This document shows, one piece after another, positions 13,282 to 38,669 of a stretch of DNA of 64,000 bases. Below the pieces are notes generated by a model that saw only the letters and a program-made list of their open reading frames with translations, made no database searches and had not been told where the DNA came from. This stretch comes from Eledone cirrhosa (lineage: Eukaryota), in assembly GCA_964016885.1 (NCBI GenBank), contig OZ024740.1, forward strand, positions 406,782,001 to 406,846,000, given 5' to 3'. How positions within the stretch are numbered: position 1 is the stretch's first letter; every line of letters begins with the position of its first letter. A program made the position numbers and the translations under genes.

Positions 13282-13325
13282 TGTTTATATATATATATAT
13301 ATATATGTTTATATATATATATATA
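13132..13325. repeat. (TA)n tract interrupted by TGTTT
   Basis: Direct reading; first of many such tracts. Confidence 0.95.
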
Positions 13326-13607
13326 TTTCGTTTCTGAATTTGACACACAGAAACAAAATGGCGTAGGACAGAACAAAGGAGAGGCACAGAAACAAAGAAA
13401 GGAATCCCCAGTCACTGAAGAGGTAACAGAGTGTGTGACGAAAGAACTATGACTATATATAAACAACTATCTGGTTGTGGAACCAACCAACCAACCAGAA
13501 ATTTATAAATTTATAAATTTGTTATAAATTTATTATAATAAATTGAAGTGAAAGCAACTGGTGCGTGTGTTTCTTATTGGCAACATGACCCTCCCAAAGT
13601 ATAACAA

Positions 13608-13610
<3 letters not shown>
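13323..13610 (+). mobile_element. Solo Penelope pseudo-LTR with short inverted tail
   Basis: 13343-13610 is the reverse complement of part of the pLTR at 28242-28675. 13323-13342 (atatttcgtttctgaatttg) is the element's 3' tail in the opposite orientation. Both ends abut (TA)n. Confidence 0.9.
13410..13454 (+). ncRNA. Minimal type-I hammerhead ribozyme motif (pLTR)
   Basis: AGTCA-CTGAAGA-G-GTAACA-gagtg-TGTGAC-GAAA-GAAC-TA-TGACT: perfect stem I, stem II with one mismatch, very short stem III, CUA cleavage triplet. Confidence 0.75.
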
Positions 13611-17925: not shown

Positions 17926-18970
17926 TTATTTTTTTTTTTCCTCCTTTCGTGGATCGTAGTTGTCTCCCCTTCCCGCTTAGTGACGCTATAATACTTCCTC
18001 AGTCAAAAACTGCTGGAATTTCAAATTTGCCGGTCATTCGATGCGCGAAGGAGCAACTTAACAGACACGATTTTTAACTGTGGTAAGAAATGTTTTTCTT
18101 ATATCAAAGTTTAATGGGCTTCCACTGATGATTTATAAGCGCCCACCTAAATATATTCTTACATGAATGTATATTAGGCTTCTACATAAACTGGAAATAT
18201 TCTCCGAATTTGTAGAAAACTTATAATGAAACAATTGTTTGGAAAGAGAGATATATTTTAACTTTAATTATATCTCATAAAATAATACAACTGGCTTTTC
18301 CACATAATACATATTGTTAGCACCCCAAACACTTAAATTGGGTTTATATTAAAATATAACCTAATGTTTGTTGAGCGAGATGGTTACCAGTTAGAGATTA
18401 GCTTTAAACTATCTCTGTTATTGTATTAATATGTTTATATATATATATGTTTATATGTATATATATGTGTATATATATATATATGTTTATATATACATAT
18501 ATATGTTTATATATATATATGTTTATATATACATATATATGTTTATATATATATATGTTTATATATACATATATATGTTTATATATATATATATGTTTAT
18601 ATATACATATATATGTTTATATATATATATGTTTATATATATATATGTTTATATATACATATATATATATGTTTATATATATATATGTTTATATATATAT
18701 ATATAAACGGAAAAAAATGAAACAAAATTTCATTTCCCACTCTTAGTACGGCTGTTACTTAAATATAAGTATGTATACATACATACATATATGTATACAG
18801 ACGTACAGTAGTATGTATATATATATACATACATGCACACATATATATATGTACGTATGGATTCACTAAACATTTATTATAATGCTCGGTGTGTTTGTAA
18901 ACAAACATCCCGTATTAAGCCGCAGTGTCTAGCAACCACCGTTGCTTGTTTGTTCAACACTGAAAAAAGA

Positions 18971-19013
18971 ACGCTGTACTAGTTTCAAGCTTGTTAGCTA
19001 TCGTCAGCAACGT
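18971..19013 (-). ncRNA. Minimal type-I hammerhead ribozyme motif
   Basis: ACGTTG-CTGACGA-TAGCT-aaca-AGCTT-GAAA-CTAG-TA-CAGCGT: stem I 6 bp (one GU), palindromic stem III ACTAGT, GUA triplet, U-U mismatch at the base of stem II. Confidence 0.75.
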
Positions 19014-19087
19014 ATACCTTCCTGCCAGATTGTTGAACGTCCGAAAGTATATACTTTCCTTATGCATATTAACGGCTGAGTAGCCCA

Positions 19088-19095
19088 ATTTGCAT
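19088..19095 (-). promoter_or_regulatory. Octamer motif ATGCAAAT upstream of hammerhead
   Basis: Exact octamer; sits at the same position as 20686-20693 in the diverged sister element. Confidence 0.45.
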
Positions 19096-19249
19096 ATTGA
19101 GTGGGTTAATCGGCCGGGTGCACCGAAAACGATAAACGGAGAAAATGAAACGAAATTTCATTTCCCACTCTTTACAAACACACCGAGCATTATAATATAT
19201 GTTTGGTGAATCCATACGTACATATATATATGTGTGCATGTATGTATAT

Positions 19250-20403
19250 ATCATCATCATCATCATCATCAGGTTTAGCGTCCGTGTTCCACGCTCGCAT
19301 GGGTTTGGACGGGGGTTTTCCCACTTGAGGCAAGAGTGGTTGTCTTGCTCGCATAGGACTGTCTGGCGGGTTTTCTACAGCTGGATGCCCTTCCTAACAC
19401 CAACCACATTTACAGTGTGGGGCTGGGAGGTTTTTACCGTGTTGCCTACACGGCCACATTTACAGCGTGGACTGTGTGTTTTTTGTCGTGACACCTACAC
19501 GATCTCATTTGTTTCGGCCTGGATGTTGTGGGACCAACATAACTTTACATTGAAAGGGGCGGTGTGGATGGGGTGGAGGTGGTGGGACGGGGGTGTGTTT
19601 TGATAGAGATGCCTACTGACTGTAGTAGGTTTTTACTTTGTAATTTAGGTAAGGCGGGTCTTCTCTATTACTGAGTACCGCCAAAGGTCTCGGTCCAGTG
19701 ACATTGTCTTGGAGAGGTGTAAGCGTGTGAGGTCGGAATTTATCATGTCGTCCCAGGTTTTTCTGGGTCTGCCTACTCCGTGGCTACCGTCTATCTTTAT
19801 TGCCCTGCACTTTGTTATACAGCTGTCGTCTTTCATGCGCATCAAGTGACCGTACCAACGTAGCCTTCTCTCGAGTAAACAACATCTGATCCCTCTTATT
19901 TCTAATTTTTTCCTTAGTTCGTTTATGCTTTGCCGTTCACGTATATTACTATTGCACATCCAGCGGAGCATGCAAGCTTCGTTCCTCTCTAGTCTGCGTA
20001 TATCCTCTGCACACAATGCCCAGGTCTCACTGCCATGCAGCATTGCTGTTCGTATGCAGGCATCGTATAACCTGCCTTTCATTTTTAGGGAGAACCCTCT
20101 AGCGGCTAATAGTGGTATAAGCTCTCTGAACTTTTTCCATCCAGTTCTGACTCTAGCTACTGTACTTTCAGAGCACCCTCCCCCACTGCTGATTTTGTCA
20201 CCCAGATAACGGAAGCTGTCCACTATTTCTATAGAACCCTCTGCGCAGTTGAAGGAGCTAGTATTTTGTGGGCACTTGCTGCTACTTATTGCACCAGAGC
20301 ACCGGCCACATGTAAAATCTATGTTCTTAGTTAGCTTACCTGTGATCCCACTACATCTTTTATGCACCCATACTTTGCATTTGGGACATAAAATGGAGTT
20401 TCC
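19250..20403 (-). mobile_element. RTE LINE 3' portion
   Basis: Uninterrupted ORF 19645-20367, then 3'UTR and (gat)n tail. Confidence 0.95.
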
Positions 20404-20685
20404 ATATGTTTATATATATATATATATATATATATACAATTAAGTTAAAAATGTACATCCATATATGTATACTGAAATACTAGTATGCATATGAATACAC
20501 ACACGTATACATATGTAGATGTACCAAGTCTTTCACTGGTTACTTTACTGTGAGTATCCAGCTATTCTGTATGTAAACACACAGACAAACCGGTTTTTAG
20601 AGTCATACTGGTTTTTGAGGAAATTTAATTTCGTTTCGTTATTTGTTTTTATCGTCTCCGTTGAACCGGTACGTACTCACACTCT

Positions 20686-20693
20686 ATGCAAAT
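20686..20693 (+). promoter_or_regulatory. Octamer motif ATGCAAAT upstream of hammerhead
   Basis: Exact octamer 100 nt upstream of the CTGATGA core. Confidence 0.45.
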
Positions 20694-20780
20694 TAGTCTG
20701 CCCACTACTAATTTTCATAGAAAAAGCATATAACGATATGTGCTTTTACGATTCTCCAGAAAGGCCGGTAGATAGGTAAA

Positions 20781-20821
20781 TATTGCTGATGAGTTGTAAC
20801 AACAACGAAACTAGTTCAATA
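20781..20821 (+). ncRNA. Canonical minimal type-I hammerhead ribozyme motif
   Basis: TATTG-CTGATGA-GTTGT-aaca-ACAAC-GAAA-CTAG-TT-CAATA: stems I and II perfect, full core, palindromic stem III, GUU triplet. Confidence 0.9.
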
Positions 20822-21150
20822 TTCCTTGTCTGGCTTTCTGGAGAATAGAGGAAAGGAGTTTCCTCAAAAACCAGTATGACTCTAAAAACCGGTTTGTCTG
20901 TGTGTTTACATACAGAATAGCTGGATACTCACAGTAAAGTAACCAGTGAAAGACTTGGTACATCTACATATGTATACGTGTGTGTATTCATATGCATACT
21001 AGTATTTCAGTATACATATATGGATGTACATTTTTAACTTAATTGTTTAAGCGTCAGTCATACAAAAGTGAGTTACAAACGAAACGAAATTTAATTTTGT
21101 TTCGTTATTTGTTTTTATATATATATATATATATATGTTTATATATATAT

Positions 21151-28105: not shown

Positions 28106-28459
28106 ATATATATATATATATGTTTATATATATATATATATAAACATATATATATATATATATATTGTTATACTTTGGGAGGATAATTGATCAAAAGAAC
28201 ATCTATTTTATTAATATTTATATTTTAATATATATATATATATATTTCGTTTCTGAATTTGTTTAGCAAGATTCTTTATGTGAAAACGTGTGTTGAAACC
28301 GATATTGTTATGCTTTGGGAGGGTCATGTTGCCAATAAGAAACACACGCACCAGTTGCTTTCACTTCAATTTATTATAATAAATTTATAAATTTAGGAAT
28401 AAATCTATAAATTTCTGGTTGGTTGGTTGGTTCCACAACCAGATAGTTGTTTATATATT

Positions 28460-28502
28460 GTCAAAGTTCTTTCGTCACACATTCCGTGATCTCTTCAGTG
28501 AC
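28460..28502 (-). ncRNA. Hammerhead ribozyme motif in 3' pLTR
   Basis: GTCA-CTGAAGA-G-ATCACG-gaatg-TGTGAC-GAAA-GAAC-TT-TGAC. Confidence 0.65.
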
Positions 28503-31500
28503 TGGGGATTCTTTTCTTTGTTTTTGTGCCTCTCCTTTGTTCTGTCCTACGCCATTTTGTTTCTGTGTGTGTGTTGTGTGCTTAGTCTGCGCATGCGCCA
28601 CATCCGGGTGTCTGTGTATGTTTATGTTCATTTATTTATTTGTTTATTTACATGTTACTGGTTGGTTGTTTGTTCTGTGTGTGTGTGTTTTCATTTTGTC
28701 CTTAATTGTAAGTTGTGATGTTGCTGTTCCACTCATATTTTCTATTTAATTTTGGTTGTAATTCTTTTGTTTATTGCCTCTGTGATTTGTCTAAACATTG
28801 CGTCTTTTCTGTGTGTAGATTCTATTTTTATTTCTATGTTCTCTAATTTACACTTGTGTTCTATTTTAGCATGTTGGTAGAGTACAGATGATTCTTTACT
28901 ATCTTGAAGGTCTCGCCAGTGTTCATTTATCCGTTCCCCTACACTACGAGCTGTCTCACCTATGTACACTATATTTTTGTCTCTACATTGTCCTTCAGTA
29001 CATCTTATGCTATACACTACATTTTTAGTTTTACAGTTAATATGGGGGCTTATTTTACAGGTTATACATTTCTTATCTATACATGGGGGTCTTTGAAAAG
29101 GGTATGTCTTGCTAATGTGTTTTTACGGAGGTACCTGGTCTTTCTACTATCTTAATATTGAGTTTATGTTTATCTAGGGCCCTTCTAAATTGTATCAATG
29201 AACATTACACTCTGGTATTTATTGCTATCATACCATGAGTTTATTCTATTAGCCTTATTCCTAGTTCTTTCTATTCTATTCCAAAATTTGCTCCTATACA
29301 AGGAGCAGGTCCCATTTATGTCTATATTTACCATTTTTTCCCATTTGGTTCTGGCTCCTCTATACACTCTGATTTTGTCTCTCTGGTTGTAACCAGAGAA
29401 CTGCATACGGTGGATGAAGTGTTGTATGTGTCTCTCTAGTTCTTCGGGGTTGCACATGCGGGACACGTTTCTCATCACCCGTACCAAATCCGCAATCAGT
29501 ATGTTGATTTTGGTATGGTCCGAAACAGCCGAGTTTCAGTGGATCAGATGTTTGGAAGTCATGGGTTTGGCATAATGGGAATGGAGGATTTGTTTTTTGG
29601 TATTAATGGTATCTAACCAGAGCTCTGTGTCTAGTACAGGTAATCGATGGTTAGGGTGTTTACTTGGGTAGTCTATAGTAACTCTAATACTCTGGTGGAT
29701 GGAGTTAGCTATTTGCTGGATGCTTTCCATTGTGTTTTTCTCTAGTTCCTGACTGTTCTCTAGTGGGGGTGTCTTAACTACGATGTTTATATCATCAACG
29801 TAGCGGGAGTACATTATCAGGGTTAAGGGGTCTTCTAATTGTTCTTTAAGTTTAAGTCTACTGTCCCACCATACCATGAATAAGTTAGCTATGTCGCCTG
29901 CAATGCTAACACCAATGGCTGCTCCTTCCTCTTGGGCATATGTTTTTCCATTAAATTTGAACATATGTTCCTTAAGGGTTAGTTTTATGCTGGCCCCTAC
30001 GGCATGTGCAATCATGTTCTTCAGTTCATCGTGGTTTTCGGGTGTCCGTATGGCTCTGGTCCACCCGTTTCATCTATCTGTGTGGGTTTTCTTGGCCATT
30101 GAGGTAATGGTAGGTGGTCTGCCTCTTGCTGGTCTTGTAGGGCACAGGTTGCTAAGGTCATATGTGTCTAGGTAATTATTACTATAGGTAAGTTTAAGTA
30201 GGAGTCCCAGCTCACTGGTATCAATCCCACGGAACTCAACATTGCTCTCACTGATCATTTCTACGCATTTCTCCACGTCAATAGATGGATACAGGGACAC
30301 AACATCCATACTACCCATTATGCAGTTTGTTAGGTCCCTAGATCGGTTACCCTCGCCGATTCTGCTGAGGAGGTCCTCCGTGCTGTCACATACATCTGGG
30401 GACATTTCAATGATGGGGCGTATGATCAGGGAGAGGAAGTAGGACAGTCTGTAGTTACTAGCAATGTTAACTCCACAGACTGGCCGTGTTGGTGATCCCG
30501 TGACAGGGTCACTGCCCGTTTTATGGTCTTTTCGAAGCCCATACAACGCCGGCACGTCATTGTTCCAGGCCTGGAAGTTGTTGGCAGTCCTTTCGTTGGG
30601 CTGCATTATATTCGTCCACATCACCATATGGGCATTGAGGGCTTTTTCTCTATCCTCATGCTCCTGTGGTGTTACCTCTCTTGTGTTAGTGATGTGGGGT
30701 TGCATTGCCTGGATGTAGTTTGGCAGGCTGTCAACCGACATTCTGCCAGACTTGTCTGTTGGAAAGCATGCTATCTCTCCATTACGCGAGCGCTGCATGA
30801 GCTTACGCAAGCCATTTGCAGATTTTTCTCCCAGTTGCTGGGCCTCCATTCTATTATGCTTCTTGCTATACTGTTCTATAATATTTCTAAGTTCGGATCT
30901 AGCTATACTAAATTGTGCTTCTGTTTGTTCATCGACCTGCGACGGCAATTGCGTGCGTTTGTTAAATGGTAAAGTCGTGGCGTGGACTCGTCGCAGGTCG
31001 AACGACTTATCGGAGGGATTATAAAAAGTAGAGTTCCAGGCTGCTGCTTTATGTGTACTAGTGTTATTGTTATTGTTAGTTGTGTTATTTCTATTTCCAC
31101 CAACAGCCTCATGGTTGTTTCTATGTCTCTCATAATTACTCCCGTCTCTTTCCACTGGCTCATTGTTATTATCTACCCTATTGTGTGTGTCTGTGTGTTC
31201 ATCTTGGTTATTTTCTTTTTTTTTGTCCTTAGTCTCCCTTCTCCTTTTAATCCTATTACTTTCCCTTATTTCTGTGATTTCTGTGCTACTGTCATTACTT
31301 GTTTTCTGTGTCTGTGTGTTTGTTAAGATTGTGGTGGTGGTGAGAGGCGTTGAATGTGTGTTGTTGATGATGTGTGTTGTTGTTGATGTGTGTTGTTGTC
31401 TCCGTGTGTGTTATTGTTGTTTGTGTCTGCGTGTCTGTTGTTGTTTCTGAGTATGTTATTATTGTTGGTGTGTGTGTTGTTATTGTTGTTTGTGTCTGTT

Positions 31501-32425
31501 GTTGTTGGGATGTGTGTTGTATATGTGTGTGTGTATGTTGTTATTTTTGTTTTTGTTTATGAGGCTCCAACGTAATTTTGTAAATGATTTTTCTATTTCT
31601 GACAGACAACTAATCATATTTACCTTCTTGAATGTTGCAAATTTTGGTGGTAGAATTAATACAGATAATTCATCAGGGTCTATTACCGTGTTGCCGTATA
31701 TATTTGTGTTGTTGTTCTTGTTGAACTCATCTGTTAATGAGGTGTCGGCCATATTTATACCGTCAATTTTGTCGGGATATCTATTGGTATTCTCTACAGT
31801 ATCCTGATTTAGCTTTATCTGCTTAAGCCACTTTAGTTTTTTTGTTAAAGTGCTTATCACATTCTTGAGCAATGTACTGTTCTTCAGGACATATAAGGCT
31901 TATAAATATTAGTTTCTCTCTAGGTGTGGTGATCCTAGTTATTTCTTGTATTAGGTTACGCTTATGTTTTTCTTGATGACTTAATTCTCTATAGATCTTC
32001 TTTTTTATGTTTAGAATTAGTGTTCGTTTTAGCCTATCTGATTGCTTTTTGGTGAGTTGTAATCTTACGTCAGTGTTGATGGTGTTGGTGTAAACTCGGG
32101 ATGAGGCACATTCTTTTATGAAGTGTAGTTGTCGAGATGTTATGGTTTTTCGTAGACAACAGAACATGGTGGTTTTCAGTATCTTGTTAGCCTGGCTAAG
32201 GCTTACGATATTTCGTTTCTGAATTTGTTTAGCAAGATTCTTTATCTGAAATCGTGTGTTGAAACCGATATTGTTATACTTTGGGAGGGTCATGTTGCCA
32301 ATAAGAAACACACGCACCAGTTGCTTTCACTTCAATTTATTATAATAAATTTATAAATTTAGGAATAAATCTATAAATTTCTGGTTGGTTGGTTGGTTCC
32401 ACAACCAGATAGTTGTTTATATATT

Positions 32426-32468
32426 GTCAAAGTTCTTTCGTCACACATTCTGTGACCTCTTCAGTAAC
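32426..32468 (-). ncRNA. Hammerhead ribozyme motif in 5' pLTR
   Basis: GTTA-CTGAAGA-G-GTCACA-gaatg-TGTGAC-GAAA-GAAC-TT-TGAC; perfect 6-bp stem II. Confidence 0.72.
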
Positions 32469-32640
32469 TGGGGATTCTTTTCTTTGTTTTTGTGCCTCTC
32501 CTTTGTTCTGTCCTATGCCATTTTGTTTCTGTGTGTGTGTTGTGTGTCTAGTCTGCGCATGCGCCACATCCGGGTGTCTGTGTGTGTTTATGTTCATTTA
32601 TTTATTTGTTTATTTACATGTTACTGGTTGGTTGTTTGTT

Positions 32641-37845: not shown

Positions 37846-37979
37846 TAGAAGAGATATTTAATTTGTTGGAAATTCAACAAATATAAATGTTTATAACTGA
37901 TTCAGAGCACTCGACAGTTTTCTGGAGTAAATATTCAATGATATTAAATAAATGGAAACTATATTTATAAAACCATATT

Positions 37980-38041
37980 TATTCTATTATATATATTTCA
38001 AGGGTACCAAAAACTTTGGTACGCTTTCATCAGATAAAATA
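37980..38041 (-). ncRNA. Hammerhead ribozyme motif (left arm of palindrome)
   Basis: Reverse complement of 38174-38235. Confidence 0.7.
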
Positions 38042-38173
38042 CAAAGTGTGTTTTATAAATTTTGACATAACCAAGGAAACATACCTTATCAGTTGAATTT
38101 TCCTTACCCAAGGAAAATTCAACTGATAAGGTATGTTTCCTTGGTTATGTCAAAATTTATAAAACACACTTTG

Positions 38174-38235
38174 TATTTTATCTGATGAAAGCGTACCAAA
38201 GTTTTTGGTACCCTTGAAATATATATAATAGAATA
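38174..38235 (+). ncRNA. Hammerhead ribozyme motif (right arm of palindrome)
   Basis: TATTTTAT-CTGATGA-AAGCGTACCAAA-gtt-TTTGGTACCCTT-GAAA-TATATA-TA-ATAGAATA: stem I 8 bp, stem II 12 bp (1 mismatch), palindromic stem III, AUA triplet. Confidence 0.7.
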
Positions 38236-38669
38236 AATATGGTTTTATAAATATAGTTTCCATTTATTTAATATCATTGAATATTTATATATTAAGAACT
38301 CCAAAAGTTCACATAACCACGATGTGCTTTGTGCATCCATAGTACTGCAAAATTGTGTCACACACCATCTTACTTCAATGCTAACTGGAATGAATCCAGT
38401 GACCGAGTACTTCACTACAGAATCAGTGGTCTAGTGGCAATATTAAACAAAATAATTAGGGTTATCATAAGAAATTAATATGGCTATCAACCAATCGACC
38501 ATTAAATCAATTAATATAAAATATCAAAATTATTGATATATCCCACAAATTCATTACGATTACCAATATAACTAATATCAAACAATCAATAATTAAATCA
38601 GTCAATAAAAATATTTAAAAATATTGATATCCAAACCAACGCCAGTTTCACCAAAAGTTGAACTGCTAC

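Follow-up and report, generated by a model that had tools for sequence, protein, structure and literature searches.

The locus considered here, in Eledone cirrhosa, raises the question of how a short repeat that encodes no protein and carries the fold of a hammerhead ribozyme has spread, and whether selection acts on that fold. The window, that is, the whole 64,000-nt stretch of DNA that was analysed, is crossed by a host gene of the pectin acetylesterase family (4910-61721, minus strand, six exons), an exon of which gives a 96% match to a pectin acetylesterase 5-like protein of Octopus vulgaris. The last intron of this gene (from about 48,390 to 5,400, about 43 kb) contains the element under study (18703-19250) in sense orientation and a sister element in antisense orientation; it also holds LINE fragments and a Penelope-like element. 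Between the two sisters lies the 3' fragment of an unrelated LINE (19252-20409, minus strand), presumably RTE-like, whose (GAT)n tail adjoins the inverted arm described below.

The element is on the minus strand and consists of 1.1 copies of a 428-nt unit (18703-19172): one whole unit (19172-18745) and 42 nt of the next. A sequence-only reading of this DNA had described a terminal direct repeat, an inverted 5' arm, a 3' end running into (TA)n and no meaningful ORF, and all of these are present where it placed them. The two copies of the direct repeat (19132-19172 and 18703-18744, minus strand; 41 and 42 nt) are 93% alike at a spacing of 428/429 nt, but this 'terminal repeat' simply reflects the overlap within a partial tandem, and it varies in length among loci. 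The second copy stops at the distal ('tail') 3' site and is followed by (TA)n, the target tract being the TA-rich microsatellite directly below 18703 (18426-18702). The inverted arm (19171-19250, plus strand) is a copy of 18822-18901, 97.5% alike over 80 nt. The longest ATG-initiated ORF in the circularised 428-nt unit has 49 amino acids (49-50 across both units), and the GC content is about 35% regionally. Other copies of the family prefer a proximal ('short') 3' end (18760-18770, minus strand), 57 nt before the distal one. A purine-pyrimidine hairpin rich in TA/TG (18768-18850, minus strand) gives spurious microRNA matches; the matches in the unit fall in low-complexity hairpins, with scores far under the cut-offs, and were rejected. 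The sister element (20433-21118, plus strand) belongs to a second clade, clade B, and has a 466-nt unit (20620-21085) with a tail to 21118, an inverted arm of 191 nt (20433-20623) and a hammerhead whose C3 is at 20786.

The predicted ribozyme is a type I hammerhead (18971-19013, minus strand) with its core at 19007-19001 and C3 at 19007. Stem I has 6 bp (19013-19008 with 18976-18971) and belongs to an extended hairpin (18952-19038, minus strand) in which a 3x1 internal loop lies beside the 6-bp stem; stem II has 4 bp (18999-18996 with 18991-18988) and a U.U pair at its base (19000/18987); and stem III is the palindrome ACUAGU (18983-18978), with cleavage predicted after 18977 (GUA). The stems are as the earlier reading gave them (stem I ACGTTG/CAGCGT, stem II AGCT/AGCT), and the ACTAGT palindrome that it noted is stem III, common to both clades. 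Three details are to be amended: stem I of the sister has 6 bp or more, not 5; loop II, said to be kept as AACA, is so in these two copies but is AATA or AAGA in many relatives; and the U.U at the base of stem II had been overlooked. In the 64-kb window, a hammerhead descriptor gave four matches: 19007 (minus strand), 20786 (plus strand) and an unrelated inverted pair at 38033/38182.

The copy has the core, the helix I of 6 bp, the helix II of 4 bp, the palindromic helix III and the NUH triplet of a canonical type I hammerhead, but the Watson-Crick pair that should close helix II (10.1-11.1) is U.U instead. This pair is U.U in all 53 distinct copies of the same subfamily and in 80/80 copies of A1, A3, A4 and A5, classes that are themselves defined by the 5' U; it is C.A in 22 of the 26 copies of C and G-C in 32/32 copies of B, and G-C is confined to clade B; in the larger clade, A, the pair is U.U or C.A. 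With one hammerhead only, a stem III of 2 bp and the U.U pair, the copy is predicted to cut poorly alone. A search of Rfam gave no hammerhead match for the 18703-19250 copy at E values up to 10. The sister copy aligns over the whole model of Hammerhead_HH9 (RF02275), with which it shares the type I topology and the internal loop of stem I, but at 38.6 bits it is under the 52-bit cut-off; at Rfam's own cut-offs, no hammerhead is found in either copy.

As circles, the monomers of both clades are predicted to fold well and into a similar series of hairpins, with z-scores of -6.4 (428-nt unit) and -10.4 (clade B) in sense, and of -6.4 and -7.0 in antisense (30 shuffles each); by z-score, the 428-nt unit folds as well in antisense as in sense. 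The value of -6.4 is that of the circular 428-nt monomer alone; the z of -19.6 found for a 548-nt stretch takes in the genomic inverted arm. The predicted 428-nt circle is 69% paired, with stems I and II at probabilities of 0.47-0.96; helix III is absent from the predicted monomer fold, and the palindrome duplex has an energy of -4.8 kcal/mol.

Chance can be set aside as the origin of the hammerhead: the pattern of core plus palindrome has 40,569 matches in the 3.0-Gb genome, against 7 for the reversed control. At 450 bp each, we estimate that the roughly 40,000 cores make up about 0.6% of the 3-Gb genome. Exact patterns, which cover part of the 40,569 core matches, assign 7,528 to the subfamily of this copy, 6,094 to the sister clade and 1,613 to cores whose helix II starts with C or A. 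With the copy as query, 2,062 first-look candidates were obtained, and the 40 best full-length matches are 97-100% identical. The loci fetched are biased samples: 60 are the best BLAST matches, 50 are the first pattern matches along contig C1, and a further 24 are C-type matches. When 95 distinct segments are clustered, the subfamilies of clade A lie 5-22% apart and clade B lies 38-43% away.

Throughout the family there is one type I hammerhead per unit, and the start of a unit is usually preceded by its own end, so that the unit closes on itself. The short non-coding unit repeats in tandem with a period of 428 or 466 nt (422-430 and 466 across arrays), in arrays of up to 31 units, and the units in most arrays differ by 0-2 of 170 nt, both orientations included. 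In the public run X1, likewise, 52 contigs lead from the start of the unit into its own end. X1 is one of four runs of unspecified type that were compared as contigs; these runs bear on presence and variants only, and the small shares in X4-X6 were left aside. Under the criterion for an 'active' retrozyme, the family would be classed as one (L158, L151 and L164); the 18703-19172 copy itself is a monomer. One array (G000:C1:49584286-49588107), with cores spaced 420, then 842, 842, 842 and 842, forms a dimeric higher-order repeat, alternate units of which do not match the exact pattern.

A version of the search with minimal stems gave 134 matches, against 19 for its control, and these are mostly deletion variants of the 428-nt unit. 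A short motif with core words four bases apart recurs at L203, L207, L212 and L216, and is probably another repeat. In addition, at least four further classes of hammerhead-like motifs recur (L080:771, L080:2600, L150 and L029:824), which puts the genome's hammerhead total well above 40,000.

From the two copies in the window, the sequence-only reading had proposed that the stems covary and that selection acts on RNA structure, and the comparison of subfamilies agrees with this. The 139 distinct copies were sorted into seven subfamilies, one being left unassigned, with labels that used some stem letters; the 7 subfamily medoids were then compared at 13 stem pairs, the 10.1-11.1 pair being left out. 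Re-pairing of columns with equal reference letters leads one to expect 20.5 broken cells among the 91 on average, whereas a single one is observed (0 of 20,000); pairs that have changed on both sides number 6 of the 13, with 1.4 expected (P 0.0006). When the shuffle was restricted more strictly to the stem columns, none of 20,000 trials reached the observed value on any of the three measures. Variation is as frequent in stem columns (46%) as in the others (45%). The split between the two clades is implicated in five of the six double changes, so that the signal comes mostly from one deep split and represents few independent events. Among 13 copies from within clade A, double changes are seen in 6 of 55 pairs, a number reached in 22 of 500 shuffles, and pair types are no higher than in shuffled data. 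The core, the stem lengths, the 3x1 loop and the cleavage triplet (GUA or GUU) are kept across clades 38-43% apart, conservation of the core and palindrome being partly imposed by the search pattern. Most simply, the selection would be on the element's own copying and not on a function for the host.

The ends of the copies indicate how this copying may proceed. Among 133 run ends, 98 enter (TA)n at one of two sites (48 distal, 50 proximal), the proximal site lying 57-69 nt before the distal one; another 15 reach either site with a different flank and 20 are unclassified, in a tally made by regular expressions that counts both arms of an inversion. An inverted arm lies upstream in 60 of the 129 run starts, a rough count from local alignments. 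Two 3' ends, partial tandems, an inverted 5' arm and a TA target together form a Penelope-type footprint. Partial tandems, inverted arms and a TA bias are described for Penelope-like elements by Craig et al. (PMC8557442), and Frangieh et al. (PMC11167929) attribute the tail, deemed unique to these elements, to two starts of reverse transcription. The coding Penelope-like element of the window (28245-32640, minus strand, ends approximate), which has reverse transcriptase (RT) and GIY-YIG regions in a broken frame, displays the same two-end pattern, 60 nt apart, with TA following all 14 of the distal sites and 8 of the 27 proximal ones. The two pLTRs of this element, separated by about 4 kb, each carry a small hammerhead unrelated to that of the 428-nt unit; a solo copy of its pLTR lies at about 13325-13610 (plus strand), and its RT has 18,563 first-look candidates in the genome. 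Since the unit leaves the same TA-microsatellite footprint as Penelope-like elements, it likely borrows their enzymes.

Other Penelope-like sequences were also encountered. An abundant family (L274, L273 and L275-L278; 39,322 first-look candidates) contains many open ORFs of 713 codons, and no hammerhead was found near the ORF ends. Three long ORFs of the Penelope-like kind had no match in Pfam, so that the label rests on motifs, tblastn links and weak matches. At 37860-38290 of the window, a head-to-head inverted pair represents another hammerhead class (cores at 38033, minus strand, and 38182, plus strand; long helix II; TATATA palindrome); it is probably an inverted pLTR stub, as coding Penelope-like ORFs in L258 and L260 have related motifs at their flanks.

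Taken together, these observations make it probable that the high-copy non-coding 428-nt unit with its type I hammerhead fold is a non-autonomous non-LTR retrozyme that is mobilised by Penelope-like enzymes acting in trans. Judged by its genomic features, the family falls within the definition of a non-LTR retrozyme. The steps that would lead from an array to a new copy are modelled on known systems. Tandem arrays would be transcribed, by read-through or from a promoter of their own; two adjacent hammerheads would join by means of the ACUAGU palindrome, and cleavage after GUA would free a 428-nt monomer for ligation into a circle. A Penelope-type RT-endonuclease would then nick a TA tract, target-primed synthesis would begin from either of two positions separated by about 60 nt, and copying of the template for more than one turn would yield partial tandems, often with a second, inverted arm.

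The circle is the step at which an alternative fares best. Although we consider it unlikely on balance, the unit could be a non-autonomous, Penelope-dependent repeat whose template is the uncleaved read-through RNA of tandem arrays, with no need of a circle, the hammerhead serving in protein binding, cutting with the assistance of a protein, or cutting rarely. Every copy with an intact hammerhead spans the cut site, and none of the 129 run starts lies within 3 nt of a cut site by rough local alignments; the template must thus have been intact there, as a ligated circle or an uncleaved multimer would be, and the genomic data fit both. As a ligated circle would leave the same genomic pattern, the count of run starts cannot separate the two. 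The non-standard pair in stem II is in keeping with copying of uncleaved RNA, and so are published assays: in vitro, Penelope protein inserts without need of cleavage, its chief substrate is unprocessed RNA and its hammerhead needs the protein (PMC11167929), and one of nine Xenopus retrozyme dimers cleaved in vitro, the other eight being without cleavage (Li et al., 10.64898/2026.07.22.740005). Against this, the elements of a working hammerhead listed above (core and palindrome in part fixed by the search) are kept across clades, and comparable repeats of mussel, coral and axolotl are described as cleaving and circularising (PMC7229834), the axolotl retrozyme with the same U.U reaching 22% cleavage as a monomer and more as a dimer (PMC7229834).

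A further reading goes beyond the preferred one, and we put it forward as a tentative possibility that is more doubtful than not: octopuses may harbour, in this family, an ancient and free-standing lineage of circular RNAs of viroid size, by now unrelated to any resident pLTR, which exploits the enzymes of Penelope by way of two structured sites for priming. As parts of the same tentative reading, the palindrome common to both clades could let them activate one another by forming mixed hammerhead dimers; U.U or C.A in stem II would have weakened the ribozyme of the dominant clade, allowing circles to last and copies to be tolerated in introns; and expression might be tissue-specific, under the control of a conserved octamer. 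If this were true, the units would be among the abundant circular RNAs of octopus cells.

It is far less likely that the copies are ordinary solo pLTRs, or the 5'-truncated ends of a coding Penelope-like element. The anatomy of the insertions is common to the family and to coding Penelope-like elements, and the genome has many coding families, which the library of 17 proteins from this genome used here covers incompletely; a rare coding partner may lie outside it. The alternative laid down beforehand, that the unit always flanks a coding Penelope ORF, nevertheless did not hold. A same-sense Penelope fragment lies within 1.2 kb upstream in 1 of 130 run starts, and this sole case is broken in the middle of the RT and separated from the unit by a microsatellite, as befits a separate insertion; antisense Penelope-like matches occur at 9 of the 130 starts. 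In the control, 27 of 29 hammerheads lie beside the coding element, in loci that were fetched for that element and for which the figure is high by construction. Moreover, the start of the unit is preceded by its own end with a period of 428 nt, not of several kilobases, and its hammerhead is canonical, not of the minimal pLTR type. Searches of 97 coding-element loci with profiles of the unit gave separate unit insertions, whole or partial, and weak matches with E values of 0.008 or worse. Nor was any pLTR kin to the unit found through the coding element of the window, a search of the GIY-YIG family or a second RT family; weak matches met in these searches were confined to the TA/TG-rich hairpin and were rejected. 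The same lack of homology to coding-element ends in the 97 loci speaks against the helper link of the retrozyme reading, and differs from Xenopus, where pLTR homology is reported for 21 of 57 retrozyme families (Li et al., 10.64898/2026.07.22.740005).

We give still less credence to a satellite DNA that spread by unequal crossing-over or by extrachromosomal DNA circles, with the hammerhead as a relic. Long homogeneous arrays, one of them with the dimeric 842-bp period, would suit such a satellite, and local DNA amplification probably adds to array length; most loci, on the other hand, are dispersed single or partial-tandem copies, whose fixed 3' ends, variable 5' ends and TA targets have the polarity of reverse transcription, and the stems covary between subfamilies. 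A host-selected regulatory RNA at this locus, for instance a ribozyme acting on the host pre-mRNA as the sense position in the last intron might suggest, is the least credible reading, because the copy is recent (97-98% like many other family copies), its private changes disrupt pairs of its own extended stem I and the covariation is between subfamilies, not orthologues; the 18703-19172 copy is likely an inert passenger in the intron.

The non-autonomous retrozyme that we favour has close parallels. Like the metazoan non-LTR retrozymes (PMC7229834; 10.64898/2026.07.22.740005), the family has a non-coding tandem unit of a few hundred bases and low GC, one canonical type I hammerhead per unit, a range from monomers to multimers, a well-folded predicted circle and Penelope-like elements in the same genome. 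The unit of 428-466 nt is longer than the circles of 170-400 nt given by Cervera and de la Pena 2020 (PMC7229834) but falls inside the span of 51-972 bp given by Li, Clavereau and Pollet 2026 (10.64898/2026.07.22.740005). For the present family, expression, cleavage and circles are predictions, and no homology of its unit to a resident pLTR was found. A footprint of two-end tail and inverted arm is not described for retrozymes in the parts of PMC7229834 and 10.64898/2026.07.22.740005 drawn on here. In the axolotl (PMC7229834), as here, one genome contains very many copies of two hammerhead families, and the axolotl Rtz_353 with HHR_Amex2 also has U.U at the base of helix II; stem III there has two pairs and a tetraloop, in contrast to the two pairs and 2-nt loop within a 6-nt palindrome here. 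Newt satellite 2 (cited via PMC2220036) is, similarly, a dispersed tandem repeat with a dimer-dependent hammerhead.

With endonuclease-bearing Penelope-like elements (PMC8557442, PMC4209133, PMC11167929) the family shares partial tandems, 5' truncation, an inverted 5' arm, an optional 3' tail from two starts, AT-rich or (TA)n targets and a type I hammerhead. It differs from them in that the unit has no ORF, in its period of 428 nt versus kilobases, in its tail of 57-69 nt versus the 30-40 nt quoted for Penelope (PMC8557442, PMC11167929), and in its canonical hammerhead versus a minimal one (PMC4209133); the helix sizes of the unit fit the canonical dimer-forming type I hammerhead of PMC4209133. 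Our search of the literature, made in sources outside subscription journals and repeat libraries, brought to light no retrozymes described from cephalopods. The words 'ribozyme', 'retrozyme' and 'hammerhead' do not occur in the text or one supplement of the 2026 repeat annotation of Octopus vulgaris (PMC13282606), and the giant squid paper (PMC6962438) gives only a count of 235 Rfam hammerheads. The 428-nt unit may already be in a repeat library under another label.

Retrozymes are a known class, and their helper has so far been inferred from co-occurrence and pLTR similarity. The present family bears the footprint of Penelope reverse transcription without likeness to any pLTR examined, and thereby offers independent genomic support for mobilisation in trans. 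In addition, the 428-nt unit, being compact, could serve as a substrate in the in vitro assay that already exists for Penelope.

An octamer-like motif, ATGCAAAT, a putative POU octamer, is kept in both clades (19088-19095, minus strand; 20686-20693, plus strand). It lies inside a predicted hairpin, where an inverted octamer-like word pairs with it. The motif resembles the octamer of the snRNA-type promoter of newt satellite 2. A promoter of this kind was considered for the unit and rejected: no octamer occurs in the 300 nt upstream of the host U1/U2 genes (11 upstream regions), and the unit has no significant similarity to these regions, the best match (E 0.057) being in AT-rich sequence, which leaves an snRNA-type promoter unsupported. 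The U2 and U1 genes themselves lie in tandem arrays (L220-L253) and have in common, upstream, a TCAGT-like word near -57 and a CCTCCCTT-like word near -255, both of them candidate promoter elements of this genome.
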